Origin: Elusimicrobiota bacterium
Lineage (GTDB): Bacteria > Elusimicrobiota > Elusimicrobia > Elusimicrobiales > Elusimicrobiaceae
DNA length: 64,000 nt
Assembly: GCA_009778915.1 (NCBI GenBank)
Contig: WRFH01000004.1
Location: 37,390-101,389 of the forward strand
Direction: 5' to 3'
The position numbers were made by a program, and so were the translations under genes. Of the stretch, positions 7,112 through 34,684 are shown piece after piece. The notes below the pieces were generated by a model that saw only the letters and a list, made by a program, of their open reading frames with translations, ran no database searches and was not told the origin of the DNA. The first letter of the stretch is position 1, and each line of letters starts with the position of its first letter.

Positions 7112-7186
7112 GCGCCTATAGCTCAATGGATAGAGCACCAGCCTGCGGAGCTGGGGATACAAGTTCGATTCCTGTTAGGCGCACCA
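7112..7186 (+). tRNA. tRNA-Arg(GCG)
   Basis: Acceptor GCGCCTA/TAGGCGC, D arm GCTC/GAGC, anticodon stem CCAGC/GCTGG with loop CTGCGGA, TTCGATT loop, encoded CCA. Confidence 0.95.
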
Positions 7187-7190
7187 TTTG
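7180..7190 (+). repeat. attL core
   Basis: CGCACCATTTG overlapping the tRNA 3' end. Confidence 0.8.
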
Positions 7191-7192
7191 GC

Positions 7193-7221
7193 AACGGCAT
7201 CTTATAAAAGATGCCGTTTTT
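7193..7221 (+). terminator. Intrinsic terminator after tRNA-Arg
   Basis: AACGGCATCTT-ataa-AAGATGCCGTT then T-run. Confidence 0.75.
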
Positions 7222-7397
7222 GTATGGGTTGTGAATTTTGTCGTCGTGGGTTTTTGAAGGTTTGCCGAGTGAGCGTCTTGTATAGCCTATTATATGTCTA
7301 AAATATTGGCTTTTTAAGGCCAAACTATACCCATGCCTATTTTCAGGTATCCCAACAAGTGTATAGTTTTCTAATACTAAACTATGCACTAACGCGA

Positions 7398-9071
7398 CTA
7401 TTCGTATTTGTAGCCCCATTTTTGTTCCTGTTCTTTGAAGTTTAGGTGGGTATAGGCCAAAGTTTTTAAATCTTTCAGACGGAGGTTTTTAGGATTTTTA
7501 TTATTGAAGATATCACTAACAATATTCGGAGACAGGTAGGTCAAATTTATATATCGGTCTATTGTCCTGTAGTTTTGTCCGACTTCTTTTTCAATATCAC
7601 GTAAAGTTTTCCCTTGCTCCAACATACGCATAAACTTCCATCCCAAGGCCAAGCCGCGCACCAAGCCCTCATTCATTTGCGTTACTGTTAATACGTTTTT
7701 AAGAGGACCTTGAGCCAGACTTGTTTTAGTCATATTATCTATAACAAATTCTGTTTTAATAATTAGTTCTGTCCCATCAGAGCTTAGCGAGATATTATTG
7801 TCTATCGGTAAGTTTTTTTCGTTAAATCCGCTGTCATCATAATGCGTCTTGATGAATTTTGTAAATTCTTCAATACTTAAATATATCACAAGTTCTGAGA
7901 TATTTTCTCTTTTAATATAAATGCCTTTATTCAAGAATACTTTTATATGTTCTTGCTTTAGTGTCGGTATTTTCTTTAAAAATATTTTGATATCTTGCCC
8001 AAAACAATTCCAGCTGCTGAAATCAAAGTCTAAAATTTTACTAATGGCTTTGACGGCAAAATTGTCTATCTGCTCCACAGGCAAGTACGTGCCACCGCCT
8101 TTTGTGTAATAGTAGTTAAACCTGCGTCCGGCTTTTTTACTATTAGTAAAACCAAATGGCTGGTTTTCTATTGTATATAACTTGCTATGAAAAAGCCCCA
8201 GAGAATATAGATATCTTTTGCGCTGTTCATTTTTATCATATCTGCGCCCAAGCTGGGTTTGTACCGCTTCAAATGTTTCTTTATCAATAATAGCCTCGTG
8301 CTGGCCTGGATAGGCTTTTTTCAGCCGCAGGTGTTCCATCATACCTATGTATACTTTGCGCGTTAACAGCCAATGCAGACGGGCAATATTAAAGTCTTTT
8401 CCCCCCTTCATGTCCCCGTTCCTCTTTTTCCATGCTTTCCTTTTTATGCCTTGAGTACGCACACATTCAATAACACCTCGCAAAGTCCCAAATTCTAAAT
8501 ATTTCGCAAACAAAGCCTTCACGATTTCGGCCTCGGCGGGATTGACTACTAATTTTTTATCAATCACATCATAGCCGAGCGGCGGCATGCCACCCGCCCA
8601 CATCCCTTTAGCCTTTGTCGCAGCTAGTTTATCACGGACACGCTCGCTTGAAACCTCTCTTTCAAACTGTGCGAAAGATAGCAGCATATTAAGCGTCAAC
8701 TTGCCCATAGAATTACTAGTATCAAAGGCTTGTGTGATAGACACAAAGTCGCAGCCATATTTCTTAAACTCTTGCATCATGTTATGAAAGTCCATGATGG
8801 AACGCGAAAGCCTGTCCACCTTATAAACGACCACAATATTTACAAACCCTGCTTTTATATCCTTTAGCATCTCTTGGAGCCCGGGCCGATCCATAGTGCC
8901 GCCGCTTATCCCGCCATCTTCATAAGTTTTAAAATATTCCCAAGCATTAAAAGTTTGGCTGGCAATATAAGATTTACAAGCATCCTCTTGGTTATTAAGA
9001 GAGTTATATTGCAGCTCCAGCCCTTTCTCGGTTGATTTTCTCACATATACCGCACAATTTATTTTTTTCAT
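7398..9071 (-). CDS. Large serine recombinase (resolvase + recombinase domains)
   Basis: CAVYVRKST catalytic Ser, DRPGLQ, VYKVDRLSRS, LLSFAQFERE, GGMPPLGY, HEAII. Confidence 0.95.
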   Translation of the reverse strand: MKKINCAVYVRKSTEKGLELQYNSLNNQEDACKSYIASQTFNAWEYFKTYEDGGISGGTMDRPGLQEMLKDIKAGFVNIVVVYKVDRLSRSIMDFHNMMQEFKKYGCDFVSITQAFDTSNSMGKLTLNMLLSFAQFEREVSSERVRDKLAATKAKGMWAGGMPPLGYDVIDKKLVVNPAEAEIVKALFAKYLEFGTLRGVIECVRTQGIKRKAWKKRNGDMKGGKDFNIARLHWLLTRKVYIGMMEHLRLKKAYPGQHEAIIDKETFEAVQTQLGRRYDKNEQRKRYLYSLGLFHSKLYTIENQPFGFTNSKKAGRRFNYYYTKGGGTYLPVEQIDNFAVKAISKILDFDFSSWNCFGQDIKIFLKKIPTLKQEHIKVFLNKGIYIKRENISELVIYLSIEEFTKFIKTHYDDSGFNEKNLPIDNNISLSSDGTELIIKTEFVIDNMTKTSLAQGPLKNVLTVTQMNEGLVRGLALGWKFMRMLEQGKTLRDIEKEVGQNYRTIDRYINLTYLSPNIVSDIFNNKNPKNLRLKDLKTLAYTHLNFKEQEQKWGYKYE

Positions 9072-9174: not shown

Positions 9175-10374
9175 ATGAATCAATATAAAGTATTCTATGG
9201 GGAATATACACTAAAACATTGGATTGACCTTATTCTAAAAAAAGATATAATTCTTCCTCCCTATCAACGTAGTTTTGTTTGGAGCAAAGAAAGGACTTCT
9301 GGATTAATCAAAAGTTTAGAAGAAGGATTTTTCGTCCCTCCTGTTATTATTGCTTCTTTATCTATGAATAATAAATGGGAAAATTATATTCTGGATGGAC
9401 AACAACGCCTGACTTCTGTTCTGCTACGTTATCTTAATATATTCCCTGACGAAGACAAGTTTAAAGATACAGGGAATGATGCATTGGCAAATGACAATGA
9501 TGACGAGGAAGAAGAAGACTCTGATAATATTAATATCCTAAATTGGACGCTTAGAGATATTCAGGATGCGATACAGAATAGAGAAAAAGAAAATATTTTG
9601 AAAAATCTAATGAAAAGTGGAAAATATAAAGAATTTGATATCAATACACTAAATAGCGAATTTTTTGAAAAAACTTGCCTTCCTTTTGCTTATATAAAAC
9701 CAACTCAAGACTCTGAAAATGACCAAGTACGATATTATTCTTCTGTATTTCGCAGAATAAATACTGGAGCCCAATCTCTCTTACCTTTAGAAGCACGGGC
9801 TTCAATGTATTGGCTTAACAAAGATTTTAAAGATTTCTTTCAGCCTGTATTATTTAAACAAATAAAAACGAATACAAAAGTGACAGATTTCGCCAGATAT
9901 ATGTCTATATTAGCTGAATACGACCATTTAAAGAGGGGTAACAAAAATATATCTCTGTTGGCTCGTGGATTCCGATATAAAATGGAAACATATATAGAAA
10001 ATTTTATATACCATACAATAGGCGATAAACCGTCAACTACATTTACTGAGTTTAAGAGTATTTTCCCAAGTAATCAATATCAAGATAAAATTAATTATTT
10101 AAAAGAAGACATCAAGTATGCAGGAGTGCCAGAAAAACTCCAATCTATAGTCGATGCAGACTATTATTTATTTGGATTAATTTATTTTGTCTTATTTGAA
10201 AATAAAAGAATAGATACTAATAAAGTGAATAATTTAGATAAAGATATAAAGCAAGCCATTTCTGATGCCAAAGAAAAAGAGAAACGCCAACCTGCGGCAT
10301 TAAAATATTTAACAAGTAGAGTTAAAAAATCCATAGAAATATACGGACGCTATATTAAAGATGAACATAAATAA
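9175..10374 (+). CDS. DUF262 (GmrS-like ParB/Srx) domain protein
   Basis: PPYQRSFVW, ILDGQQRLTS, FRRINTG motifs. Confidence 0.88.
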   Translation: MNQYKVFYGEYTLKHWIDLILKKDIILPPYQRSFVWSKERTSGLIKSLEEGFFVPPVIIASLSMNNKWENYILDGQQRLTSVLLRYLNIFPDEDKFKDTGNDALANDNDDEEEEDSDNINILNWTLRDIQDAIQNREKENILKNLMKSGKYKEFDINTLNSEFFEKTCLPFAYIKPTQDSENDQVRYYSSVFRRINTGAQSLLPLEARASMYWLNKDFKDFFQPVLFKQIKTNTKVTDFARYMSILAEYDHLKRGNKNISLLARGFRYKMETYIENFIYHTIGDKPSTTFTEFKSIFPSNQYQDKINYLKEDIKYAGVPEKLQSIVDADYYLFGLIYFVLFENKRIDTNKVNNLDKDIKQAISDAKEKEKRQPAALKYLTSRVKKSIEIYGRYIKDEHK

Positions 10375-11125
10375 CAGCAGAAGATTTATAAAAGAGCCTG
10401 TTTTAAACATATTATATGATTCTATTGTGTCCACAATATCTCTTCAGGATGGATTCAATTCTTTGGCAGTTTTCGACTATATTTTCTCATCTGTTTTTAT
10501 AAAAATCACAGGATGTTTAGAGCAAAAGATGAAACTAATATGTTGGGAAATGGCAACTGAAGATTTAGAATATAGACGGAAACTGCTGTCAGATGAAGAT
10601 AATCTAGGGGAATGTTCTCGCTATGAGGCAAAAAATAAAATATTCAAATCTCTTTGTAAACATTATTTTTCTCTAACTGACACCACAGAACTTGAAATAC
10701 CTCAAACTTTATATTTAATAGAAATAAAAAAAGAGTTCCTTTCTCTATTTTCAAATTCTCACTTTAAAAATATTTATCCGAGAGATTACATGGAATGGCT
10801 TAATATAATTGATGAATGGATCAAGCAAAAGAAAGACTATAAAATAACATTGCTAAAAGATAGTGGATTGTCAAGTTCATTATTTGGAGAAGAAAATTGG
10901 GATAAGGACACAAAAAATCAAATAAAACTATCATATAATAATATGATTATTTTTAGAAATACGGTCGCGCACAACACAAAATCTCCATTAAAAGAGCTTC
11001 CTACGATAAAAACTATGCGACAACCTGATTTTGTTTATGAAAACTATTTTATTAGGTTCACAGTACTTATTTTAGCTGATAAAATTTTCATATCATTATT
11101 TGACAAATATCTGAAAGCCCTTTAA
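10361..11125 (+). CDS. Putative HEPN-domain RNase
   Basis: Helical protein with GCLEQK and R-X4-H motif RNTVAH; overlaps the DUF262 gene. Confidence 0.65.
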   Translation: MNINNSRRFIKEPVLNILYDSIVSTISLQDGFNSLAVFDYIFSSVFIKITGCLEQKMKLICWEMATEDLEYRRKLLSDEDNLGECSRYEAKNKIFKSLCKHYFSLTDTTELEIPQTLYLIEIKKEFLSLFSNSHFKNIYPRDYMEWLNIIDEWIKQKKDYKITLLKDSGLSSSLFGEENWDKDTKNQIKLSYNNMIIFRNTVAHNTKSPLKELPTIKTMRQPDFVYENYFIRFTVLILADKIFISLFDKYLKAL

Positions 11126-13708: not shown

Positions 13709-14455
13709 TTATTTTAAGATTTTTACCCAGCTATCTTTATATTTCATGGCCGACAAAACATCTTCTTTTTTTAAAAGAGGAGGTTTTGTTATAGAAATAT
13801 ATAACGTATCAGAGGGGATGTCTTCCACTATAGTGAATTGAGAACCATGCGGCTGCCAAGTAAAGCAATGCTTGCCTTTAGCGTCAAAACCCTCAAGATT
13901 TTCTCTGCTATTCCATTTCCAAGTATATAATTCATGCTCATATCTTTGAGTGTCAAACTCAAAAATCGCGAATTCATCAAAGTTTTTACCCTTCATTAAA
14001 ACCACAGTCCTGACAAATTTATATTCTTTGCGTACGGCGGAAACGCGCTCGTTCCAGATTGCAAGAACTTGTTCCCCTAAAGAGTTCGGGTCGGCTGACA
14101 GATAATGAGAGTCTCCGAATGAATACTTAGGCGAGTTCCTACCTGATATCAAGCGAACTCTTTTTTGAGTTCTAATAGAAGCGGATTTGACCGTCTTTGC
14201 GCCCCAACAACAATTACCGAGGACAACGTCATCTAACCCAACATTGGACGGTTTCCATTTTGCGCCAACGCAATTGGCAAAAATTTCTTCCCACTCGCTG
14301 CCTTGAAGGTCATAGGAAAGTTTTGTCGCCATGGCGTAAGCAAGTTCTCTCCCTAAGTTGGATATAAAACCCTTTGGAAACTCGTTTAAATCAAAAGGCG
14401 GTTTTACCTTCTGTACAGTTCTTAATTTGGGATTTAAATTTGCCATTTTTTTCAC
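13709..14455 (-). CDS. Putative type II restriction endonuclease
   Basis: Directly downstream of C5 MTase and vsr; PD-(D/E)xK-like LDDVV...GAKTVK. Confidence 0.65.
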   Translation of the reverse strand: MKKMANLNPKLRTVQKVKPPFDLNEFPKGFISNLGRELAYAMATKLSYDLQGSEWEEIFANCVGAKWKPSNVGLDDVVLGNCCWGAKTVKSASIRTQKRVRLISGRNSPKYSFGDSHYLSADPNSLGEQVLAIWNERVSAVRKEYKFVRTVVLMKGKNFDEFAIFEFDTQRYEHELYTWKWNSRENLEGFDAKGKHCFTWQPHGSQFTIVEDIPSDTLYISITKPPLLKKEDVLSAMKYKDSWVKILK

Positions 14456-14515
14456 TCAATAGAATTAATTAACTTCTAATAAATTCTACTGGTTTTTTAG
14501 GAAAATAACAATGGG

Positions 14516-15649
14516 TTAGTAAAATACGGCGGGGATAAAGTTTTTTAATACTTCATAAACCATATCGACGGGCACGGCGTTGCCGGCCTGTTTGCGAATG
14601 TGAGAGTCTTCCAAAACTATTCTGAAATCGTCAGGGAAACCTTGAAGGCGAAGCATTTCTCTTGGGGTTAAGCGTCTTTCTCCGTTGACAAGCAGATAAT
14701 TGTACGATGCGCCGGCGCGTAAAGCGCAGGAGTACGGATAAGAAGAAATATTTCCGCTCTTATTTTCATGCCAAATAGACGGGGTATGTTTGCTTGTGTG
14801 CGCCGCTTTTCTTTTGTCAATTATACTTTTAGAGGCAAAATATTTGGCGGCGACATTTTTTTCTAATATATCATTCAACTTTTTGCCGCTTGCAACCTTC
14901 TTCGGCCATTTCATATCAAAAGGGTGTAATGCGCCGACAATGATTACTCTTTCTCTCTTTTGCGGCAGACCATAATCTAGGGCGTTTAAGACCTTATAGT
15001 CAACAAAATAGCCCAAGTCTTTTAAAGTGGTTAAAATTTTCTTAAACGTCTTACCCCCATCGTGCGAAACCAGCCTTTTAACGTTTTCCAAAACGAAAGC
15101 TTTGGGCTTTTTAGCCGCTAAAATACGCGCAATTTCAAAAAATAACGTGCCGCGGGTATCTTCAAAGCCCTTGCCTAAACCGATAATGCTAAACGCCTGA
15201 CAAGGAAATCCTGCAAATAAAATATCGTGTTCCGGGATTTTATTATTTGGAATCTTTGTAATATCGCCTGAAGGATATTTGCCGAAGTTGGCGGCGTAGC
15301 TTTTACAGGCAAACTCGTCAATATCCGAACTTAAAAGACATTCATAATTTATTTCTTCAGAATCAAAAAACTTTTTTGCGGCAAAATGGAATCCGCCTAT
15401 TCCGCAAAACAAATCTATAAAACGGATTTTTTGTTTAACGGCGGGCTCAACAGCGGAATTTTTGTTAAGGAAAATATGTTCTACCGGCATGTCAAATACG
15501 CCGGATATGCGATAGGCGAGGTCTATTGACGGCGTGGTATCCCCGTTTTCAATAGAAATAATAGTCTTACGGGTAACGTTTGCCCTCTCAGCCAGCTCAT
15601 TTTGGGTAACGTTATTAGCCCTGCGTATTGTTTTTAAAGTGTTTTCCAT
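14516..15649 (-). CDS. C5 cytosine DNA methyltransferase with N-terminal XRE HTH
   Basis: HTH TQNELAERANVTRKTIISIENG; FIDLFCGIGG, AGFPCQ, ENV, QKRER, QAGNAV. Confidence 0.95.
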   Translation of the reverse strand: MENTLKTIRRANNVTQNELAERANVTRKTIISIENGDTTPSIDLAYRISGVFDMPVEHIFLNKNSAVEPAVKQKIRFIDLFCGIGGFHFAAKKFFDSEEINYECLLSSDIDEFACKSYAANFGKYPSGDITKIPNNKIPEHDILFAGFPCQAFSIIGLGKGFEDTRGTLFFEIARILAAKKPKAFVLENVKRLVSHDGGKTFKKILTTLKDLGYFVDYKVLNALDYGLPQKRERVIIVGALHPFDMKWPKKVASGKKLNDILEKNVAAKYFASKSIIDKRKAAHTSKHTPSIWHENKSGNISSYPYSCALRAGASYNYLLVNGERRLTPREMLRLQGFPDDFRIVLEDSHIRKQAGNAVPVDMVYEVLKNFIPAVFY

Positions 15650-15662
15650 ATAAAGTATTAAA

Positions 15663-15678
15663 TGTGAAGTTTATTACA
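15663..15678. promoter_or_regulatory. Putative operator for the HTH-MTase
   Basis: Imperfect palindrome TGTGAAGTTTATTACA just upstream of the MTase start. Confidence 0.45.
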
Positions 15679-15719
15679 CTTATTGTATTAAAATTAAGAA
15701 AGAAATAAAAGCGTTATTT

Positions 15720-16136
15720 TCAAAGTTTGGCGTTGACCGCTTTTTTAATTTTGGAAACGCACTTATCTATATTTTTTTCTATATCATTCCCCCAAAAACG
15801 CAAAACAAGCCATCCATCTTTTTTAAGCTGTCTGTTAACGAATTTATCCCTTGACATATTTCTTTGTATTTTGGCCAGCCAATATTTTTTATTGGAGTCT
15901 ATATAATTAGGATTTTTTTGCAACTTTTTTCCATGCCAAAACTCGCTGTCGCAAAAAACCGCTATTTTATATTTTCCAAAAACAATATCCGGTTTGCCCA
16001 AAATATTTTTACAGTTTTTTCGATAGCGAAAACCGCTTTGCCATAACGTCTTGGCGAGTTTTACTTCTATTTTAGTCCCGCTAGACTTTATGGCCCGCAT
16101 TGTTTCGCTGCGCTGTTTTTTTGTCACGGTATCCAT
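15720..16136 (-). CDS. vsr: Very short patch repair endonuclease
   Basis: MDTVTKKQRSETMRAIKS, GKPDI, FCDSEFWHG, RFW. Confidence 0.95.
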   Translation of the reverse strand: MDTVTKKQRSETMRAIKSSGTKIEVKLAKTLWQSGFRYRKNCKNILGKPDIVFGKYKIAVFCDSEFWHGKKLQKNPNYIDSNKKYWLAKIQRNMSRDKFVNRQLKKDGWLVLRFWGNDIEKNIDKCVSKIKKAVNAKL

Positions 16137-21682: not shown

Positions 21683-22219
21683 TTATTCTCCTTTTAACAA
21701 ATCAAATCTGTTAAAATAATCCTGCTTTGAGAGGATTTTGTCGCTGCCATTGCCTATTCTCATAACCTCTCCTTTTGCTTTGTTGTTTTCTATTACAACA
21801 TCTTTTGAGGAAAGAAGGTATTCAATTACTTTATCCGCAGGGACAACGTAAATATATGGATAATCAGGATATTTTTTGTCTTCTGAAGAACCAAAAAACA
21901 CAAAGCAGAAAAATATTTTTCTGCCTTTATAATCCTCTTTTCTATCCAGGACGTTGTCCACCTTCCAATATTGGTAATTCCCCCAGAAATCTTTTTTACT
22001 TTTAACATATTTATCTCTCTGCAATGTCGTTTTAACTTCAATGAGAAACGGGGTTTTGCTATTAGGATTTTGGACGAAAATATCAAACCCCTTCGTATTG
22101 TTTAATGATATTGAAGCGTCAAACCCCTCCTTATATAGCCTTGATAGAACGGCAAACTCTCCTGCAAGGCCACTTTTGTTTGTATTTATATTTTCGGGTA
22201 TAATAGTTGTTGTTCCCAT
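21683..22219 (-). CDS. PD-(D/E)xK nuclease-like protein, paralog 2
   Basis: SGLAGEFAVLSRL...GFDIF...IEVKT. Confidence 0.75.
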   Translation of the reverse strand: MGTTTIIPENINTNKSGLAGEFAVLSRLYKEGFDASISLNNTKGFDIFVQNPNSKTPFLIEVKTTLQRDKYVKSKKDFWGNYQYWKVDNVLDRKEDYKGRKIFFCFVFFGSSEDKKYPDYPYIYVVPADKVIEYLLSSKDVVIENNKAKGEVMRIGNGSDKILSKQDYFNRFDLLKGE

Positions 22220-22222
22220 TGT

Positions 22223-22774
22223 TTATTCTCCTTTTTTATGCCCTTTATGGGTTAATAAGGAAAAATTATTTAAATAATGATTCCAGTCCAGCACATCTTT
22301 TCCAAAACCGATTCTCAGCGCAAAATTTTTCTTTACGCCTTTGCCCGGAGATTTTGTACGCGCGTCTCTTATATAAGACAAAACTTCTCTTCCGGGTACT
22401 ATAAAAATATAAGCATAATCTGGTTTTCTGTCTTCGGGTTGTTTCGCCACTATTCCGGCCACTTCTTCTTCATTGGGGAACCAAACAAAAGCAAAAATTT
22501 TTTTGTTATATTTTCTTTCTTGGTCAAATATTTTTTCGCCCACATTCCAAAAACAATGCTTGCCCCACTTACCGCCGTAAAGCGATTTCATGTAAGAAGC
22601 TGTTTTAACTTCAATTTGAAACTGCTCGCCGGTCTTGTTATTAACAGCAAGGATATCAACGGATTTAGTGTTCCCAAAAGTCAAGGAAGCGTCAAATCCT
22701 TTTTGCGCTAAACGTGAAAGCACCGCAAACTCTCCTGCAAGACCACTTCTGTTGTTATCTATATTTTTAGGCAT
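22223..22774 (-). CDS. PD-(D/E)xK nuclease-like protein, paralog 1
   Basis: SGLAGEFAVLSRL...SVDIL...IEVKT. Confidence 0.75.
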   Translation of the reverse strand: MPKNIDNNRSGLAGEFAVLSRLAQKGFDASLTFGNTKSVDILAVNNKTGEQFQIEVKTASYMKSLYGGKWGKHCFWNVGEKIFDQERKYNKKIFAFVWFPNEEEVAGIVAKQPEDRKPDYAYIFIVPGREVLSYIRDARTKSPGKGVKKNFALRIGFGKDVLDWNHYLNNFSLLTHKGHKKGE

Positions 22775-23279: not shown

Positions 23280-24515
23280 ATGGTTGAAAAAAAATTTATA
23301 GATTTGTTCGCAGGCTGCGGAGGGCTATCTTTGGGATTAATTAATGCCGGATGGAAGGGGATATTTGCCATAGAAAAATCTCCTGATGCATTTCAAACCC
23401 TAAAACACAACCTAATTGATCAAAAAGTAGTAAACTCTTTCAACTGGCCAGTCTGGCTCCCCTGTGAAGCTATGACAACATCTTTTCTATTAGAACACTA
23501 TATCGATCAACTTAAAAACCTTCAAGGAACTATTGAATTAATTGCAGGAGGACCACCTTGTCAAGGATTTTCTATTGCAGGCAAAAGAAAGCCAGATGAT
23601 CCACGGAACTCTCTAACAGAAGAGTATATTCGTGTTGTAGACTTAGTTAAACCAAAATTTTTGTTACTCGAGAATGTAAAAGGATTTAAAGCTGCATTTA
23701 AAATAAAAGGATCTAAAGAGCAAAAAGTATATTCTAAAATAGTAAAAAGCAAGTTGGAAGAAATAGGATATATCGTATATGACCAAATGTTAAATGCGGC
23801 TGATTTTGGCGTCCCACAAATTCGAGAGAGATTTATAATGATTGCTGTCCAAAAGGATATATATCGTGAGAACGAAAACCCCTTCATTTTTTTAAATAAA
23901 AATCTTGAAGAATATCTAATAAATAAAAACCTTTATAGAAATAAATATACCACGACAAAACAGGCTATCTCTGACCTAGAGACAGATTGTAGAGAATTAG
24001 TTGATTGTGAAGATTTCAAGAATTTTAAACAAATAAAATATTCTCCCAAAAACTTAACTAAATACCAGAAACTAATGAGAGAACATACTAATTCAGAAAA
24101 GAATCCCAACAGTTTGCGTTTAGCGAAACATAGAAACAATACTAAGAATAGATTTAATCTTATCTTAAACAAGTATGAAAAGGGCAAAAATATACCAAAA
24201 ACCGATTTAGAGAGTTTTGGCACCAATAAACAATGTTTTACTCCCCTGCACCCAAATCTCCCTTGCAGAACAATAACAACATTACCTGATGATCTGTTGC
24301 ACTATAGCGAGCCTAGAATATTAACTGTTAGAGAAAATGCTAGGATTCAATCTTTTCCTGACTGGTTTGATTTTCTAGGAAAATATACTACTGGTGGAGA
24401 TAGACGAAAAAAAGAATGTCCGAGATATACACAAGTTGGAAATGCTGTGCCTCCGTTGATGGCCGAAGCCTTAGGTACTGTTTTGCTTAAATTGGAGGTA
24501 GAATATGGCAGATAA
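23280..24515 (+). CDS. C5 cytosine DNA methyltransferase
   Basis: FIDLFAGCGG, GGPPCQGFS, ENV, PQIRER, QVGNAVPP. Confidence 0.95.
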   Translation: MVEKKFIDLFAGCGGLSLGLINAGWKGIFAIEKSPDAFQTLKHNLIDQKVVNSFNWPVWLPCEAMTTSFLLEHYIDQLKNLQGTIELIAGGPPCQGFSIAGKRKPDDPRNSLTEEYIRVVDLVKPKFLLLENVKGFKAAFKIKGSKEQKVYSKIVKSKLEEIGYIVYDQMLNAADFGVPQIRERFIMIAVQKDIYRENENPFIFLNKNLEEYLINKNLYRNKYTTTKQAISDLETDCRELVDCEDFKNFKQIKYSPKNLTKYQKLMREHTNSEKNPNSLRLAKHRNNTKNRFNLILNKYEKGKNIPKTDLESFGTNKQCFTPLHPNLPCRTITTLPDDLLHYSEPRILTVRENARIQSFPDWFDFLGKYTTGGDRRKKECPRYTQVGNAVPPLMAEALGTVLLKLEVEYGR

Positions 24516-26856
24516 TACTCTTTATTTTAAAGCAAATGCTGGTTTAAAAGATATTCTTGGAAAAGGGCTAATATATGATGACAATGTTGCTATAATAGAG
24601 CTAATTAAAAATGCTAAAGATGCCAAATCTCCAAAAGTTAAAATTAAATTTGAAGACGAAGGCAAAATTTCAAAAAAATCCTCACTAACTATAACCGATT
24701 TTGGTTCTGGTATGTCTATTGATGATATAACATGGAAATGGCTCAATATGGCATATTCCGAAAAAAAGGATCAGCCTCTCAGTAAAGGTTTTGCCGGAAG
24801 CAAAGGTATAGGAAGATTTAGTTGTGATAGACTAGGGAAAGAGCTCATTATATTCACAAAATCTTCAAAAGGCGAATATATTAAATTCCCTATTGAGTGG
24901 ACTAAGTTTGAAAATAAAGGAAAAGAAGACCTAATTTCAAACATACCATTAACATATGAGATTTTAGATAAAAAAAGTTTTCTTTCAGAGATAAAAGAAA
25001 AAGATTTCACTACAGGAACTGTACTAAAAATAAAAGAACTTAGAAGTGATTGGCCATCATCTAAATTGAAAAAGCTAATAAGCGAATTAGGAAAGTTTTC
25101 TCCATCGTTGGATAATGGTTTTGAGGTTGAGTTGTATTCCGATAATAGAGATTTAAAGGGGCTTGTAAACAAGAGAATAAATAAAGACATCTTTGATAAG
25201 CTCTCATTTAAAACTACATATATAAAATCAAACATAGATAAAAATGGAAAAAACATTGAAACCACTTTGTTCTATCAAGGGAATCAAGTTTATAATTATT
25301 CGATACCTAACCCTTATAAACTTCTGAAAAATATTAATATTGAAGTTCATTATTTAGACACATTATCAAAAATGTATTTTACTAAAAATTTTGGAATCAA
25401 CCCTGTAGAATATGGTTCCATTTTTTTATTCTATAACGGTTATAGGATATCGCCTTATGGTAATATAAAAAATGATTGGCTTGGTTTGGACCAACGCAAA
25501 TCTCAAGGCACTAACAGATTCTTGGGAACGAGAGAAATTCTAGGTAAAATAAACATAGTGGATGAAGATAATACTTTTTCAATAATTACAAGTCGTGAGG
25601 GCCTTGCTCACACAAAATCTTTTCAAGAATTAGTAGCATACGATAAAGAAGAAAAAACTACAATCAATGAAAATGATGAATCTTATGGCTACGTTACTGT
25701 GATAATAAGACAGTTAGAAAACTTTGTTGTTACCGGATTGGACTGGGATAGAATTATAGACAAATTTAACCCCAATAGAACTGGAGCTATTAATGAATTA
25801 GATATAATTTCTGACCCTAGCAATTTTGAACTTAAAAAAGCAAATGAAGAAAATATTGAAAAAATATGTAATCGTTTACTAAAGTCTAAATGGAAAATAA
25901 AAAATCTTACCATTAACACTAATCTTTTAAAGGATATCTCTAAGATTTCAGAAGAAAAATATGATAAATTTGTTGATGATTTTAAAGGTATTCTAAAATC
26001 AAAATCCATACAGAGCCTCTCTGTAAGAGAAAAAGGTGCTCTTGTCAAGATAATTGATAGTGAACAAGGAAAAACAAAGAAAGCTTTGGAAGAGCTGAAT
26101 GTAGAAAGTGGCCTTAGGCAAAAAGCAGAAGCGGACAAACTTATTGCTTTACAATTGGCTGAAGCAGAGAAGAAAAGAAGTCAATATTTTGAAGACCTCA
26201 TTTCTCCAGAACAAAATCTAGATGCTTTGATTACCCACGTTATCAAACAAATATCAGGTGGTATTGAAAGCAATGTAAAGGCTACGCTTTCCACTTATTA
26301 TAAAAATCCAGACCATGTTTCCAAAGAAGAACTTGTTGAAATACTTGAGGATGTTGCATTTGATATTTCTACTATAAAAGAATCGGCAATAATGTCCAAG
26401 AACGCTAATTTTAACATGAAAGTAAACACTATAAAAGCTGATTTGTTCGCATTCATAAAACAATATATAGATAAAATAGCTTCTAGAGAGAAAAAATGGG
26501 AATTAGAAATTTCTTATACCAATACACAAGATTTGGAAATGAATAAAGTTTTTTCCCCACCAGAAATAGCAGTTTTATTGGCTAATATTTTTGACAATGC
26601 TCGCAAAGCAAAAGCCAACACATTGAATATCTCTTTCCATCCAAATAAAATAATTTTTACCGACGATGGTAAGGGCCTCTTGCCTGATGTTCCATATAAT
26701 AAATTTTTTGAGAAAGGCTTTTCTTCTACAGATGGAGGATTTGGTCTGGGATTATACCACTCAAAACTTATAGCGAATAATCTGGGCGCAATTATAAGAA
26801 TTGAAAATAACAAAGATAGTAAAGGCGCAAAAGTTATCTTGGAGTTTAAAGGATGA
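24505..26856 (+). CDS. GHKL (MORC/MutL-like) ATPase fused to C-terminal histidine kinase
   Basis: N-term ELIKNAKDA, DFGSGMS, GSKGIGRFS, TGT; coiled linker; candidate H-box ITHVIKQ, NIFDNA, DDGKG, FEKGFS, GFGLGL. Confidence 0.88.
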   Translation: MADNTLYFKANAGLKDILGKGLIYDDNVAIIELIKNAKDAKSPKVKIKFEDEGKISKKSSLTITDFGSGMSIDDITWKWLNMAYSEKKDQPLSKGFAGSKGIGRFSCDRLGKELIIFTKSSKGEYIKFPIEWTKFENKGKEDLISNIPLTYEILDKKSFLSEIKEKDFTTGTVLKIKELRSDWPSSKLKKLISELGKFSPSLDNGFEVELYSDNRDLKGLVNKRINKDIFDKLSFKTTYIKSNIDKNGKNIETTLFYQGNQVYNYSIPNPYKLLKNINIEVHYLDTLSKMYFTKNFGINPVEYGSIFLFYNGYRISPYGNIKNDWLGLDQRKSQGTNRFLGTREILGKINIVDEDNTFSIITSREGLAHTKSFQELVAYDKEEKTTINENDESYGYVTVIIRQLENFVVTGLDWDRIIDKFNPNRTGAINELDIISDPSNFELKKANEENIEKICNRLLKSKWKIKNLTINTNLLKDISKISEEKYDKFVDDFKGILKSKSIQSLSVREKGALVKIIDSEQGKTKKALEELNVESGLRQKAEADKLIALQLAEAEKKRSQYFEDLISPEQNLDALITHVIKQISGGIESNVKATLSTYYKNPDHVSKEELVEILEDVAFDISTIKESAIMSKNANFNMKVNTIKADLFAFIKQYIDKIASREKKWELEISYTNTQDLEMNKVFSPPEIAVLLANIFDNARKAKANTLNISFHPNKIIFTDDGKGLLPDVPYNKFFEKGFSSTDGGFGLGLYHSKLIANNLGAIIRIENNKDSKGAKVILEFKG

Positions 26857-27800
26857 AAATAGAATATAAAATTCTATGGATTGACGACAATCATAGACAT
26901 CTGAAAGGGATAAAAAAAGTAATATCTGATTTTATAAAACAACAAGAAATTATACCTAATATAAAAAATATAACAGCTAATCCGGATTGGACTCCAGATA
27001 ACGATAAAGAGTTTATTGACGCTATAAAAGACATTGAATTAGATATGGTATTTATTGACTTTAATATGCCTGGCGCAATGGGTGACGACTTAATCAATTG
27101 GATAAGAACTTCTGAAAACAATTATCATATTCCGATACTTTTTTATACTGGGGAAGATGATCCAATAAGCACTTTGCAAGACAAAATAATAGCTCTTAAT
27201 AAAAGAAAAAGAACAAAAATAATTGATGGAATATATTTTTCAGATAGAGATAATATTGCGGATAAAACAATCAATATCCTTAAATCACTCTTTAAAAAAG
27301 AAGAGAGTATTCAAAGAAGCCGTGGGCTATTAATGGATAGAGTAAGTGAAATTGACGGTGAAATGATAAATAGTCTTGATCTGTTGTGGAAAAAAATACC
27401 CGCTGGCAAAGAAGGAGCAATAAAAGGCTTCCTTATAAAAAACATAAAACAATTTGGAGAACACAGTCTAGAACTAGCAGAAAAAATTAAAAATAATAAA
27501 TTTTCTGAAGTATTAAAAATAATAAACAAAAAACATAATACAATAGGAACAGCCTTAAGAACATCAACCCTTGTTCAGCTATTAGAAGCTACAAAATCTA
27601 AAAAAGACCTCTCTCAAAAACTAAAATGTTTTAGCAATTCATCAGACAAGAATTGTCTTTGTTCACTACGAAATAGATATGCCCACACGACTGCTAAAGA
27701 GCTAGATAAAGAACATAATACAACTTTATGTAAATATATCAGAAAAGAAACTAGAGAGCAGTTGGAAAATGTCAAACAGATAATAGCCCAACAAAAATAA
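26853..27800 (+). CDS. Receiver domain fused to putative HEPN effector
   Basis: ILWIDDN, VFIDFNMPG (phospho-Asp), FYTG; C-terminal LRNRYAH R-X4-H motif. Confidence 0.8.
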   Translation: MKIEYKILWIDDNHRHLKGIKKVISDFIKQQEIIPNIKNITANPDWTPDNDKEFIDAIKDIELDMVFIDFNMPGAMGDDLINWIRTSENNYHIPILFYTGEDDPISTLQDKIIALNKRKRTKIIDGIYFSDRDNIADKTINILKSLFKKEESIQRSRGLLMDRVSEIDGEMINSLDLLWKKIPAGKEGAIKGFLIKNIKQFGEHSLELAEKIKNNKFSEVLKIINKKHNTIGTALRTSTLVQLLEATKSKKDLSQKLKCFSNSSDKNCLCSLRNRYAHTTAKELDKEHNTTLCKYIRKETREQLENVKQIIAQQK

Positions 27801-28087: not shown

Positions 28088-28098
28088 CGCACCATTTG
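28088..28098 (+). repeat. attR core
   Basis: CGCACCATTTG identical to 7180-7190. Confidence 0.8.
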
Positions 28099-28376
28099 CC
28101 ACTGGCATCTTATAAAATATGGCGTTTTTGTATGGGGTTTGGAATTTGTCGTCATGGATTCTTGTGAATTTGCCTAGTAGGTGCCTTGTATATCCTATAT
28201 ATGTTTAAATTATTGGTCTTTTAGAGGTAAAGTAACCTGTGTCTGTTTTCAGGTATACTAACAAGGGCTTAGTTTATGGTTATTAAACTATGTACTTCCG
28301 TAATTTATATTGGTAACCATATTTTTGCTCCTGCTCTTTGAAGTTTGTGAGTATAGGTTAAAGTTTTTAATTCCTT
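28088..28376 (-). pseudogene. Degenerate copy of element left end including a frameshifted recombinase 3' end
   Basis: Aligns with 7180-7475; translates KELKTLTYTH-NFKEQEQKYGYQY vs KDLKTLAYTHLNFKEQEQKWGYKY. Confidence 0.8.
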
Positions 28377-31009: not shown

Positions 31010-31088
31010 AAGTTTTGTCAAGAAATTGAGCATTTGGTATTATAGAAGTTACAAGAAAGACCAGCCTTTTATCAACACGGGAATCATA

Positions 31089-31865
31089 ATGCTATATAAT
31101 GATTTGTTAAAATTTTCTTACAAGCGCCTAAAAGATTTCTTTAAAAATGTTTCCACCTTTGAAAATCAGTTTGAATGGACGGAATTTTCAAATATTTGTT
31201 ACAACAAAATGTACGGGAATAATTCTTACGAGCGTTTCTGTACCACCGCTGAACTAAGAAAAGAAATTCCGGAATTACCGGGCATGTGCAAAAAATGCAG
31301 AGAATATTTTTTGCATCCCCGCAATAAAAGCAAGGTTGTATATGACGTAATGATGGGAAGGTTGTTCGAAGATATTTTAATAGATTTTTTAAATTCACAG
31401 TGTAAAATTAAAGCGGCCAGGGCTGATAATCAAAACAAAAAATATCCCGATTGCATGATTTTAGGGAAGGACAAGGGGATATTGGCCTATTTCGAGGTAA
31501 AATACCACTGCGCTCCGTTTATTTTAGCCAACCAAAAGATTGGGCGTTATTGCTATGAAGGCAGCGCCACTTTAGACCAGAAAAAAATAATAAAGCAGTT
31601 AGAAATAATAGAATCCGATATTGACAGGCCGGTTTTTTACCTGCACTGGATAGACTATCCTTGTTTAAAGGGAGTTTTTTTTGAAACGTCTGAACAGATT
31701 AAAGATTATCTGTACAACCCCGATAACGTTTTCAAAAGACAACGCCGCGAGGGCGATAACGATAAAGGACCTCAGTCAGTATATCTCCATAAAGTATATT
31801 CCCCCCTGTTATCTATGGGCTCGTTTGAAGAGTTTGCGGAGAAAATCAAAGGACTGGAAAAATGA
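31089..31865 (+). CDS. Putative PD-(D/E)xK nuclease
   Basis: GRLFED...YPDCMIL...YFEVKY; overlaps the next gene; start may lie further upstream (31026). Confidence 0.65.
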   Translation: MLYNDLLKFSYKRLKDFFKNVSTFENQFEWTEFSNICYNKMYGNNSYERFCTTAELRKEIPELPGMCKKCREYFLHPRNKSKVVYDVMMGRLFEDILIDFLNSQCKIKAARADNQNKKYPDCMILGKDKGILAYFEVKYHCAPFILANQKIGRYCYEGSATLDQKKIIKQLEIIESDIDRPVFYLHWIDYPCLKGVFFETSEQIKDYLYNPDNVFKRQRREGDNDKGPQSVYLHKVYSPLLSMGSFEEFAEKIKGLEK

Positions 31866-33187
31866 TTACAATAAACGGGAAACAACTTCCGATACCTTCA
31901 TTTTTTATGATTTCCAACCTCGGCGGCGGCGCCAGCGACAAGTACCGCGAAGTCGTTTATATGGATTTGTACAAAAATATCCCGACACTCTTCAACTACT
32001 ATTATTTAACTCGTCCGGACTTTGCCACGAAATGGCTTAAACACCTGCCGGATTATGATTCAATGGCAAAATTTATAAAATACGTGCGGCAGGATATGAT
32101 AAATACGGATAAGTACATTTCCAAGAGCCATTCTCCGTCGGACGTAGACTATGAATCTATAGTTTATTTGTTAGATTCCGGCGCGGCTAATATAATAAAT
32201 AAGTTTGATAAAAACGCGTCTATAGAGCAAGTCAAGGAGCATCTGCTTAAGGAGCTTATCAACTATTATGACTTTGCTCACCGGTATAAATTTGATTTGA
32301 TTGTAGGCTTAGATATCGGCGGCAAATATACTTTTAAAGGCGAGGAAAGGCACACGCAAGAGATTATCGACAGAAATACCCAAATTAAAAAACAAAATGA
32401 TGAAATAAACTCTATGCTGCTGGAAGCGAGTATAAAATATTTAACCGCTCATAAAGATTATTATCCGAAAGTCTTGGCCACTGTCCACGGAGACACTCCA
32501 AAAGAATTCAGGGAATATACCGAAAAAATTTTGGCGTTAGAAAAAGAATATAACTATAAATTTTGGGGCTTTGCTTTAGGCGGCGTGGCAAATGCTAAGG
32601 GTAAGGATAAATCTTGGTTTAAATCTATGCCGGAGGGAATGTCCGCGAATACATTTCTTACCGCCGAGGCCGCGAAAATAGTAAAAAAAACCGCCGGGAA
32701 CAGATATATACACGTTTTAGGCGGCGGCGGGAAAGATAACATTCCCCTGATATCCTCCCAAGGCGCAGCATCTTTTGATACCTTTACTCCGGGCAGGAGA
32801 GCTTATGACGGAAATGACGCTTCCACAAAACTTGTTTTCAACAAAGATGCCGATGAGCACTTCTCAAAATATCTCATCGGGAAATATGATATAAATCTAA
32901 AGCCTATTAATAAAGATTGGGATTTTGATTATTATCCTTTAAATAAAATAAACGACGATATAGATTTATGCGGCTGCCCGGCCTGCCAATGTATAAAAGC
33001 ATTTGGAGAAATCAAAAAGTTGTACTCCCTCAGAAGAGAAGAAGATAATGAAGACTATTATTACGCCAGGCAGCTATGTAACGCTCATTCTATTTGGCAG
33101 CATGTAAGATTGTGCGAAATCGCGTCGAGAAAAAAATTTCTTAATTATTGTCTTACGTTCAGTCTTTTAATAATCTCTTTTTTATAA
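31862..33187 (+). CDS. Divergent tRNA-guanine transglycosylase-like protein (DpdA-like)
   Basis: LLDSGA, GLDIG, TVHG, ALGG, IHVLGGG, SFDT, Zn site CGCPAC...HS. Confidence 0.75.
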   Translation: MITINGKQLPIPSFFMISNLGGGASDKYREVVYMDLYKNIPTLFNYYYLTRPDFATKWLKHLPDYDSMAKFIKYVRQDMINTDKYISKSHSPSDVDYESIVYLLDSGAANIINKFDKNASIEQVKEHLLKELINYYDFAHRYKFDLIVGLDIGGKYTFKGEERHTQEIIDRNTQIKKQNDEINSMLLEASIKYLTAHKDYYPKVLATVHGDTPKEFREYTEKILALEKEYNYKFWGFALGGVANAKGKDKSWFKSMPEGMSANTFLTAEAAKIVKKTAGNRYIHVLGGGGKDNIPLISSQGAASFDTFTPGRRAYDGNDASTKLVFNKDADEHFSKYLIGKYDINLKPINKDWDFDYYPLNKINDDIDLCGCPACQCIKAFGEIKKLYSLRREEDNEDYYYARQLCNAHSIWQHVRLCEIASRKKFLNYCLTFSLLIISFL

Positions 33188-33918
33188 GAAGAATCCATCT
33201 CAAAACCTATAGATTTACGCCCAAGCTTAAGGGCGGCCAGGCAGGTTGTCCCGCTGCCTAAGAAAGGGTCTAAAACAGTGTCTCCTTTATCGGAAGACAT
33301 TGTTATTATTCTCTCAATCATGTCCAGCGGGTAAATCGTTGGGTGCTTAAGGTTGAGAGACTTCTTAGTCATATTATTAACGCGGTTAAAATACCATACG
33401 TCCGTCGGGTTCCTGCCCTTCCCCCCCGCCAGCCGCTTATCATTCTGGGTAATATAAGGAATACGGATTTTATCCAAATTAAACACATAATTTTTTATAT
33501 CCTTAACGCCCCAGACTATATTCTCATATCTGCCGGACAGCCTGTTGGTGCAATTCTGCATATTATTAAATGTCCAGGTTATTATATTCCGTATCTTAAA
33601 ATTCTCTTCCTTCATAATTTGATAACCGATAAACGGAAGAGGTAAAATTTCCCTGTCCTCCCCGTACGGGATGGGAGAAAGATTTAAGAAAAAACTGCCG
33701 TCGGGCTTCAGAACCCTGTATATTTCTTTTGTTATATCCTTTATAAGTTTTTTCCACTCGTCCAACGGAATCGTATCCAAATATTTGCCATAAGGTTTGC
33801 CGATATTATACGGCGGAGAAGTGACAACAAGACGCACGGAAGAATCCGGAACCTTTTTTATCAGCTTTCTGCAATCGCCGAAATCAACAAAAATATCCTT
33901 TGTCTTAATCATTTTCAA
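33145..33918 (-). CDS. N4C/N6A DNA methyltransferase (M2)
   Basis: TSPPYN, HPTIYP, DPFLGSGTT. Confidence 0.93.
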   Translation of the reverse strand: MKMIKTKDIFVDFGDCRKLIKKVPDSSVRLVVTSPPYNIGKPYGKYLDTIPLDEWKKLIKDITKEIYRVLKPDGSFFLNLSPIPYGEDREILPLPFIGYQIMKEENFKIRNIITWTFNNMQNCTNRLSGRYENIVWGVKDIKNYVFNLDKIRIPYITQNDKRLAGGKGRNPTDVWYFNRVNNMTKKSLNLKHPTIYPLDMIERIITMSSDKGDTVLDPFLGSGTTCLAALKLGRKSIGFEMDSSYKKEIIKRLNVRQ

Positions 33919-34684
33919 TCTTCTTTAATCTTTCATTTGCCATGTCCACATACTCGGGCACTATTTCATATCCCAAATAGTGCCTGTTTAGTTTTTTAGC
34001 CGCCGCGGCGGTAGTGCCGCTGCCCATAAACGGGTCTAAAACGATATCGCCCGGGTTGGTGCCCGCTAAAATTACTCTTTCAATCAATCTTTCGGGATAC
34101 TGGGCCGGGTGCGCGGTGCGCTCCAAAAAATTGCCGGAAATCATCGGAATACGCCAAACATCCGTCGGGTTTTTAAGCTGGGATTTATATCTGTCCGGCC
34201 TGTAATTAAGAGACGGGATTTTAACGTCGTCCAGATTAAATTTATATTTTTTATTATTTTTTGTATACCAGAAAATAAATTCATATCTTGGCGCGAACCG
34301 CCTGTCCGTCGAGCCGCCCCAGTCAAAATTCCATATGATTAAATTTTTCAGATACATTTTTTTAAAAAATGTTTCCATCCAAAACGGCGTGATTACGGCG
34401 TTTCCGTCATATCTGTTTTTAATATTTATCCAAACAGAGCCGTCTTCTTTAAGGACTCTGAAACACTCGGCAAAAACTTTCTTCAGCATATTTCTGTATT
34501 CTTCTTCCGGCAGGAAATCTTTATATTTCCTGCCCTTGCTGGCAATTGTGCGCCCCGACTTAGTTTTATTGCCGTACTGAATATTTATATTATACGGGGG
34601 AGAAGTAACTATTAAATCAACGGATTTATCGGGTATTTCTTTCATTTCCTCGCTTGAGGATAAAAAAATCTTGTCTATTTTCAT
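33905..34684 (-). CDS. N4C/N6A DNA methyltransferase (M1)
   Basis: TSPPYN, HPAQYP, DPFMGSGTT. Confidence 0.93.
   Translation of the reverse strand: MKIDKIFLSSSEEMKEIPDKSVDLIVTSPPYNINIQYGNKTKSGRTIASKGRKYKDFLPEEEYRNMLKKVFAECFRVLKEDGSVWINIKNRYDGNAVITPFWMETFFKKMYLKNLIIWNFDWGGSTDRRFAPRYEFIFWYTKNNKKYKFNLDDVKIPSLNYRPDRYKSQLKNPTDVWRIPMISGNFLERTAHPAQYPERLIERVILAGTNPGDIVLDPFMGSGTTAAAAKKLNRHYLGYEIVPEYVDMANERLKKIEND

Follow-up and report, generated by a model that had tools for sequence, protein, structure and literature searches.

What might a DNA methylase, a protein with two ATP-binding modules and a receiver domain fused to an RNase-like domain do together, when their genes overlap at the end of a genomic island? 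The question is posed by a 64,000-nucleotide stretch of an Elusimicrobiota genome (hereafter the window; assembly GCA_009778915.1, contig WRFH01000004.1, positions 37,390 to 101,389 of the forward strand), for which a preliminary description, made from the sequence alone, had proposed a defence system in which a two-component relay switches an abortive-infection RNase. The three-gene cassette is conserved, mobile and self-contained. Our best explanation, offered tentatively and at a little short of an even chance, is an anti-phage system whose ATPase reads methylation and whose relay from His578 to Asp69 switches on a dimeric HEPN RNase. Taken separately, a role in defence is likely, control of the HEPN RNase by a working His-Asp relay is equally so, and phosphorylation somewhat more probably than not switches the RNase on. 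What we infer is DNA sensing, transfer of phosphate, cutting of RNA, an abortive outcome of infection, and a switch that activates the RNase instead of releasing it; statements about published systems refer to portions of the cited sources.

The three genes are co-oriented and overlapping on the forward strand, as first described. They encode a C5-cytosine DNA methyltransferase of 411 residues (23280 to 24515; PF00145, E 1.3e-60), a soluble fusion of GHKL ATPase and histidine kinase of 783 residues (24505 to 26856), and a 315-residue protein (26853 to 27800) in which a receiver domain (residues 1-149, 26853 to 27299) precedes a probable HEPN RNase domain (residues 150-315, 27300 to 27800); methylase and kinase genes overlap by 11 nt, kinase and receiver genes by 4 nt. 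No restriction nuclease was found in the operon among the window open reading frames (ORFs) with Pfam, and promoter-like sites occur at chance level (24 versus 24.2 expected). The GC content of the three genes is 0.29-0.34, compared with 0.47 for the genome. GATC is strongly avoided genome-wide (observed/expected 0.08), which is not assignable to the cassette methylase because the genome has three C5 methylases as well as other methylases. One contig in each of two termite gut metagenome runs spans the stretch with zero differences, though these runs may be the source of the DNA itself.

Relatives of the receiver-HEPN protein numbered 24 by word-index search, while a profile search returned 1105, 431 and 55 cluster representatives (50% identity clusters) at E<=1e-3, 1e-10 and 1e-30; the weaker matches will include ordinary receivers, and the 431 clusters mark the family as broad. 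Loci from GTDB genomes span Cyanobacteriota, Rhodothermota, Pseudomonadota, Bacillota, Bacteroidota and Campylobacterota, and further Planctomycetota, Spirochaetota, Fibrobacterota and Lentisphaerota (taxon per sequence record); three of 32 GTDB loci (L029-L031) proved to be PorX-type receivers, false matches that were dropped, and L118 had no receiver at threshold. The kinase gene lies directly upstream of the receiver gene in 29/29 GTDB loci, 11/11 loci from evenly sampled genomes (one of which repeats another locus, L004) and 60 of the 61 assessable loci in a highly redundant metagenome set. Methylase and kinase both precede the receiver in 8/10 sampled and 43/44 metagenome loci that could be assessed, and in 26/27 such GTDB loci, all 26 in the same order, so that the neighbourhood conservation which the preliminary description had wanted checked is present. 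Both sampled misses keep the methylase within the gene string, L051 after the receiver and L044 with three genes between methylase and kinase, and one metagenome locus (L066) has a divergent methylase. RNxxAH, the putative catalytic motif, is present in 27/29, 10/11 and 54/57 receivers that no contig boundary interrupts (GTDB, sampled and metagenome, respectively), the misses being truncated proteins.

As an observation in its own right, two loci (L119:2850-8266 and L044:5035-12920) carry in one string a C5 methylase, unknown proteins of 713 and 515 residues, a DndH-like ATPase of 1523 residues, the kinase and the receiver-HEPN gene, a combination that we read as a C5 methylase joined to a module of the Dnd-restriction type.

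Comparisons among cassettes were made on 43 complete triples, chosen for completeness and dereplicated at 90% receiver identity from 73. Around these 43 there is no conserved fourth gene (of 282 ORFs nearby the most frequent are found at 4/43 loci, HNH neighbours at 4/43 and Vsr at 1/43) and no conserved XRE or helix-turn-helix (HTH) control gene. Because no neighbour family is found at more than 4/43 loci and Vsr at only one, the unit is three genes without a restriction nuclease. Neighbouring genes are often defence or mobile genes, including type III restriction-modification (R-M), RloB/AAA, TOTE, Tn7 and integrases. The same comparison led us to reject the other R-M genes of the island as parts of the system. 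The claim that a classical restriction endonuclease (REase) is lacking holds for the operon itself; it must be qualified by two small PD-(D/E)XK-like genes (21683-22774, reverse strand), paralogues of 39% identity that lie divergently 500 bp upstream of the methylase and have weak Pfam support only. These were likewise rejected as part of the system, being seen at no other locus searched.

The receiver half of the 315-residue protein is matched by PF00072 (Response_reg) over its cut-off and has the acidic pocket and phospho-acceptor that had been noted from the sequence, D11-D12 and D69 (27057-27059), together with T99. Fold searching with the whole protein returned receivers only (Z 13.7, root-mean-square deviation (rmsd) 2.5 over 125 aligned residues). 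The RNRYAH motif (27669-27686) lies in the C-terminal domain, which in isolation is predicted to adopt an all-helical fold (predicted local distance difference test (pLDDT) 95), and as LRNRYAH, with R273 and H278, it ends helix 120-129 of the model at the His. HEPN RNases are defined by Rx4-6H, with a polar residue after the Arg, located where a core helix ends (PMC3710099), an arrangement that this domain shares. Conservation of the Arg and His had been named beforehand as a check: among 143 aligned full-length relatives (from 169 pooled) D69, R157 and R273 are invariant and H278 is found in 142, while one full-length relative (P0290) lacks RNxxAH by pattern. In the 43 complete cassettes D69, R157, R273, N274, H278 and the RNxxAH pattern are without exception.

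Structural comparison of the isolated domain is consistent with the same assignment. An exhaustive structure aligner ranked first the N terminus of Roquin (Z 8.8), a match that presumably contains its HEPN part, and second a designed bundle. Five chains titled HEPN are in the top 35, namely 2hsb (Z 8.1, rmsd 3.4, 105 aligned), 3o10 (sacsin HEPN, 8.0), 8xdj (7.5), 7ae2 (6.5) and 4nqf (6.3); so are Csm6 and SO_3166, which we take to be HEPN proteins. Four more chains in the top 35 (1ylm, 1jog, 3c8g and 3brj) are HEPN according to PMC3710099, and the resulting nine HEPN chains, at Z 6.3-8.1, are to be read with caution since these Z values are moderate and Foldseek is blank. A homodimer of the domain is predicted at 0.71 (best control 0.00) with R273, N274 and H278 in the interface; the mark for this test, in which at least 95% of contacts are shared between runs and pLDDT is at least 85, was reached by 20/30 solved pairs and 1/23 single chains. 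Weak matches to HEPN Pfam families occur among 134 family members (RiboL-PSP 9, Cthe2314 6, MAE_28990 5, Apea 2). Taken together, these results make it quite probable that the C-terminal domain is a HEPN RNase; the earlier assignment thus stands as a probable one, carried by the HEPN chains and the dimer prediction and without support from Foldseek. PADLOC has no model that matches the receiver family, with three stray single matches among the 134 members.

The methylase appears by its sequence to be an ordinary C5 enzyme, with catalytic motifs PCQ (Cys94, 23559-23561) and ENV in 43/43 cassettes. The kinase, previously described as carrying two GHKL modules and no membrane segment, indeed contains HATPase_c_3 (residues 27-149) and HATPase_c (688-781), and its highest 19-residue hydropathy is 0.93, with no membrane segment found. 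From the N terminus it comprises a paraMORC-type GHKL domain, a conserved middle (216-415, which we assume to be S5-like), a charged helical linker, DHp and the kinase ATP-binding domain. The N-terminal GHKL motifs are intact and stand in an R-M context, as expected of a paraMORC: E32, N36, DxGxG and GxKGxGR, with E32 and N36 in 42/43 (the exception stems from an ORF called too short) and DxGxG, G98 and G101 in 43/43. Region 29-210 matches the BbrUII/HgiDII restriction-enzyme family NF050001 (E 7e-18, far under the cut-off), and Bacillota-type relatives match REase_II models of PADLOC at 1e-26 to 1e-30. The second module contains N694, N698 (invariant in 43/43), D720-x-G-x-G and G745-x-G-x-G. 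Histidine kinases of solved structure align with the C-terminal third across the DHp and catalytic domains, with H578 (26236-26238) on the phospho-His of the 5uht kinase (profile, E 2e-13), and this His is invariant in 78/78 close and 43/43 diverse relatives. The N, G1 and G2 boxes, the phospho-His of DHp and the receiver DD, D and S/T are all present, as in a canonical His-Asp pair.

From these parts a mechanism can be proposed. Methylation by the methylase would mark host sites, and the GHKL clamp would engage unmethylated ones; a conformational change could then travel via the linker to the kinase, phosphate would move from His578 to Asp69, and the receiver, once phosphorylated, would license RNA cutting by the HEPN dimer, which would halt the infected cell. 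DNA sensing by the ATPase half is likely, given that the N-terminal module resembles GHKL-type restriction enzymes in which the nuclease would have been replaced by a kinase core. In a GHKL-Shedu the ATPase Glu is needed for defence (PMC12137116).

Several known systems are similar in outline. Bellieny-Rabelo et al. (2021; PMC8011034) described computationally pairs of HEF_HK (PF19191) and Response_reg_2 (PF19192) proteins beside C5 methylases, and proposed a paraMORC origin for them. These pairs share with the cassette an upstream C5 methylase, a soluble kinase of HATPase_c_3, DHp and HATPase_c, and an adjacent receiver, but their receiver query is 600 residues long compared with 315 here, their output domain was unassigned whereas here it is a probable HEPN, and the present cassette has no conserved nuclease partner, be it HNH, Vsr or another. 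PF19191 has no match in the window kinase (E<=0.1) nor in 10/10 relatives (E<=0.001), and PF19192 none in the window receiver, with matches in 2/134 members (best E 0.0045). Ambrosia (AbrRABCD; bioRxiv 10.1101/2025.09.30.679545), a validated five-gene system of Pseudomonas aeruginosa in which the phospho-Asp is needed for defence, likewise joins a methylase, a HATPase sensor kinase and a receiver with phospho-Asp in one cassette (architectures, not sequences, were compared). Its features are an N6-adenine methylase, an XRE regulator, a receiver fused to a winged HTH (wHTH) and a separate HNH protein, in contrast to the C5 methylase, three genes, receiver fused to a probable RNase and lack of a regulator here; no wHTH was returned by the fold search of the isolated C-terminal domain, and Ambrosia's set of wHTH, HNH and XRE was not found.

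A second group is formed by GHKL-type restriction enzymes and paraMORCs, including R.HgiDII, the BbrUII family and R.NmeAIP, a paraMORC fused to a Ymh HEPN (PMC2441816, PMC2292703, PMC3710099). ParaMORCs were described in PMC2292703, their HEPN fusions occur in R-M neighbourhoods (PMC3710099), and R.EcoUTORF4938P is a putative restriction enzyme with GHKL and kinase domains (PMC2441816). Common to these and the cassette is a homologous N-terminal GHKL beside a methylase, and both a HEPN (Ymh) output and a kinase C terminus have been noted there, separately; their effector is fused to the ATPase, whereas here a His-Asp relay is proposed to connect ATPase and HEPN across two proteins. HEPN RNases regulated by a fused domain are also known in defence, as PrrC, RloC and the CBS-HEPN system DS-11 (PMC3710099, PMC13092281), where gating is by ABC-ATPase or nucleotide binding rather than by a predicted receiver. 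The cassette thus resembles Ambrosia and the GHKL restriction enzymes and is a member of neither, differing by the probable RNase fused to the receiver. As to novelty, the trio as such is not new, since the chassis of methylase, GHKL-kinase and receiver was already in print (PMC8011034; bioRxiv 10.1101/2025.09.30.679545); the HEPN output branch alone looks undescribed. No receiver-HEPN fusion was found in the open-licence literature searched, where supplementary tables and Fig. 6F of DefensePredictor (HATPase, REC) may list the cassette, and the parts of PMC12839542 and of the Tiamat preprint that were covered do not describe it.

Variation among cassettes indicates how the chassis may be assembled. 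In L001, from a Melainabacteria-type genome, identity to the window is 38, 24 and 14% for the methylase and ATPase half, 41% for the kinase core and 47% for the receiver; L003, L056 and L062 look similar. Trees (24/43 rows) place the methylase and ATPase half of L001 among Bacillota cassettes at a support of 1.0, and its kinase core (1.0) and receiver (0.997) in the window clade; therefore the crossover fell inside the kinase gene. Alternative groupings were rejected by the approximately unbiased test (p-AU 2e-46 and 3e-23; 16 rows, groups named after the first trees had been viewed). L001 would accordingly be a chimera by sequence, with methylase and ATPase from one clade and kinase core and receiver-HEPN from another, and such a crossover fits a methylase-matched sensor, hinting at swappable input and output modules. 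Partial rank correlations across the 43 cassettes (pairs not independent) are 0.49 for methylase and GHKL half, 0.36 for kinase core and receiver, and 0.13 for GHKL half and kinase core. In a gammaproteobacterial sample a kinase-profile search found 8/400 genomes, six of them (L129-L134) matching only the GHKL half; each of the six combines a methylase with a double-ATPase kinase and with a receiver-like gene whose output is of another kind, and one, L129, is Ambrosia-like with N6 methylase, receiver and HNH. The chassis is therefore general, and the cassette described here is its HEPN branch. The receiver of L131, which carries RNDAAH, was rejected as a family member in the absence of any alignment to the receiver-HEPN family (probability 2.8%). 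That the whole constitutes a widespread immune system, with a His-Asp phosphorelay gating an RNase toxin and with methylase and sensor exchanged as a unit against kinase and receiver-RNase, is a proposal to which we give nearly, though not quite, equal weight for and against.

A number of observations weigh against our explanation. The HEPN Z values (8.8 at best) are within the chance range for helical bundles, designed bundles ranking among them; Foldseek returned nothing for the isolated domain at E<=0.001; no HEPN Pfam family passed its curated cut-off (16.3 bits for the window domain, compared with 27.1 for HEPN_Cthe2314); the homodimer result may be driven by resemblance to HEPN dimers of known structure; and at the optional HEPN motif Ex3[KR], present in many families, E166 is found in 35/43 and D/E168 in 43/43 but Lys at +4 in only 5/43. 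An Atlas search of residues 148-315 returned unnamed clusters under 0.9, with a HEPN structure match under the naming bar. Such results would be expected if the domain were some other helical effector or binding bundle in which RxxxxH is coincidental. We consider this very improbable given that several independent HEPN families and structures were matched, and that the motif, which closes a helix just as it does in HEPN proteins, sits in the predicted dimer interface.

The relay, too, departs from the norm. Canonical His-Asp pairs have an acidic residue after the His and a Lys after beta-5 of the receiver. Neither is found here, a point that the preliminary description had missed: His578 is followed by Val, this position is never acidic in the 43 kinases (V/H/Q/L/I/S/T), and the position of the canonical receiver Lys, noted also in PMC8011034, is S130, with an Arg two residues on (R132) conserved in 135/143. 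The relay chemistry is atypical for these two reasons. The module swap is a single event that plain physical linkage could explain as well, and at one locus (L054) the methylase and kinase genes are intact but accompany a bare receiver that lacks HEPN.

Ambrosia itself gives pause, in that methylation gave phage no protection and host toxicity was not seen (bioRxiv 10.1101/2025.09.30.679545), and both methylation as a mark of self and an abortive outcome are weakened as a result. The methylase might instead be the trigger, through its induction by infection or its trapping on phage DNA, with the ATPase reading methylated DNA or the methylase-DNA complex and firing the relay. In Ambrosia the methylase is required and infection-induced, and pre-methylated phage is unprotected (same source); the covariation of methylase with the GHKL half, set against that of the GHKL half with the kinase core, points the same way. 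We nevertheless regard this as rather unlikely, as no XRE or HTH control gene is conserved beside the cassette and the GHKL half is similar to type II restriction enzymes that work alongside protective methylases.

The sign of the switch is a separate matter. A guard role is what the HEPN RNases PrrC and RloC have, and by analogy a kinase active while the methylase works could keep receiver-HEPN phosphorylated and silent, such that loss or inhibition of methylase or kinase frees the RNase, as a backup against anti-restriction or for post-segregational killing. Tight translational coupling through the gene overlaps would suit this arrangement, PrrC and RloC are located in R-M operons (PMC3710099), and in two genome loci (L020 and L026) with a broken kinase the receiver gene is also frameshifted, ahead of the RH motif. 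These are just two credible decayed loci, however, and decay of the whole cassette explains them equally; L112 retains an intact receiver with a frameshifted kinase (which may be a sequencing error), and several other broken metagenome loci resemble sequencing errors. The decayed loci do not decide the sign of the switch. In Ambrosia the D60A mutation loses defence, which fits activation (bioRxiv 10.1101/2025.09.30.679545), and silencing by phosphorylation seems to us unlikely.

Activation of an RNase in defence also has to be set beside a circuit that does not kill, whose relay would act on an RNA-processing or RNA-binding protein of narrow scope and thereby tune expression of the methylase or the island. 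Regulation of R-M was proposed in both chassis papers (PMC8011034; bioRxiv 10.1101/2025.09.30.679545), there is no PADLOC model for the receiver family, and related units failed the defence screen of DefensePredictor: its Table S6 gives two E. coli units of receiver and ATP-binding protein, with no methylase listed, as non-protective in E. coli, a result that counts against defence as well, though these units probably belong to another branch. We think such a circuit improbable, in view of the lack of a DNA-binding domain and of a conserved regulated gene, the strict retention of RNxxAH, and a patchy spread typical of defence cargo. The receiver family was found in 1/301 genomes searched in its own phylum (the window genome) and, with five candidates scored per genome and seed genomes included, in 2/400, 11/401 and 1/401 genomes of three evenly drawn groups. 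No relatives were found in viral contigs, and no match among plasmid and phage records was full-length.

If the favoured reading, a methylation-reading ATPase that activates an RNase by phosphorelay, is true, the ATPase with which a restriction enzyme reads DNA has become wired to a kinase instead, giving a plug-and-play signalling chassis for DNA surveillance. Two-component relays are standard in bacterial signalling, and the one validated defence example found, Ambrosia, is thought to act via transcription; direct control of an RNase by phosphorylation would add a mode of immune signalling. The cassette would also offer a DNA-methylation-responsive kinase and a minimal setting in which to ask what it is that prokaryotic MORC-type ATPases sense, a question open since 2008.

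The cassette is the last cargo of a ~21-kb element that extends from a tRNA-Arg(GCG) gene (7112 to 7186, forward strand; ARAGORN), the integration site according to repeat analysis, to a 66-nt att-like direct repeat of 7180-7245, the 3' end of the tRNA, at 28088 to 28153 (forward strand; blastn 86% over 66 nt, E 8e-12). A large serine recombinase with Resolvase and Recombinase Pfam domains (7398 to 9071, reverse strand) is the likely integrase, and together with the repeat and low GC it confirms the island-end position first proposed. The island (7187-28088) also encodes a terminase large subunit, DUF5681, two DUF2924-like genes, a ParB-methylase and at least four defence-like cassettes, with further methylase-linked genes of that kind. 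By eye the repeat at 28088 appears to run on for ~200 nt resembling the left end of the island, which suggests a second related element inserted there in tandem.

Among the other cargo, a GmrSD/DUF262 protein followed by a 254-residue protein with an RNTVAH motif (9175-11125, forward strand), the latter protein matched by neither Pfam nor PADLOC, is a possible second HEPN defence pair. The system at 13709-16136 (reverse strand) comprises Vsr, an HTH-C5 methylase and a putative REase, and a homologous set lies directly after a kinase-receiver-methylase cassette in an unrelated genome (L051:10162-12444; REase 33% identical, E 6e-42). Outside the island, 31026-34684 contains a 279-residue nuclease-like gene product, a 441-residue one that resembles by eye a tRNA-guanine transglycosylase (no match in PADLOC or NCBIfam) and two adenine/cytosine methylase-like genes, and is possibly a DNA-modification defence locus.

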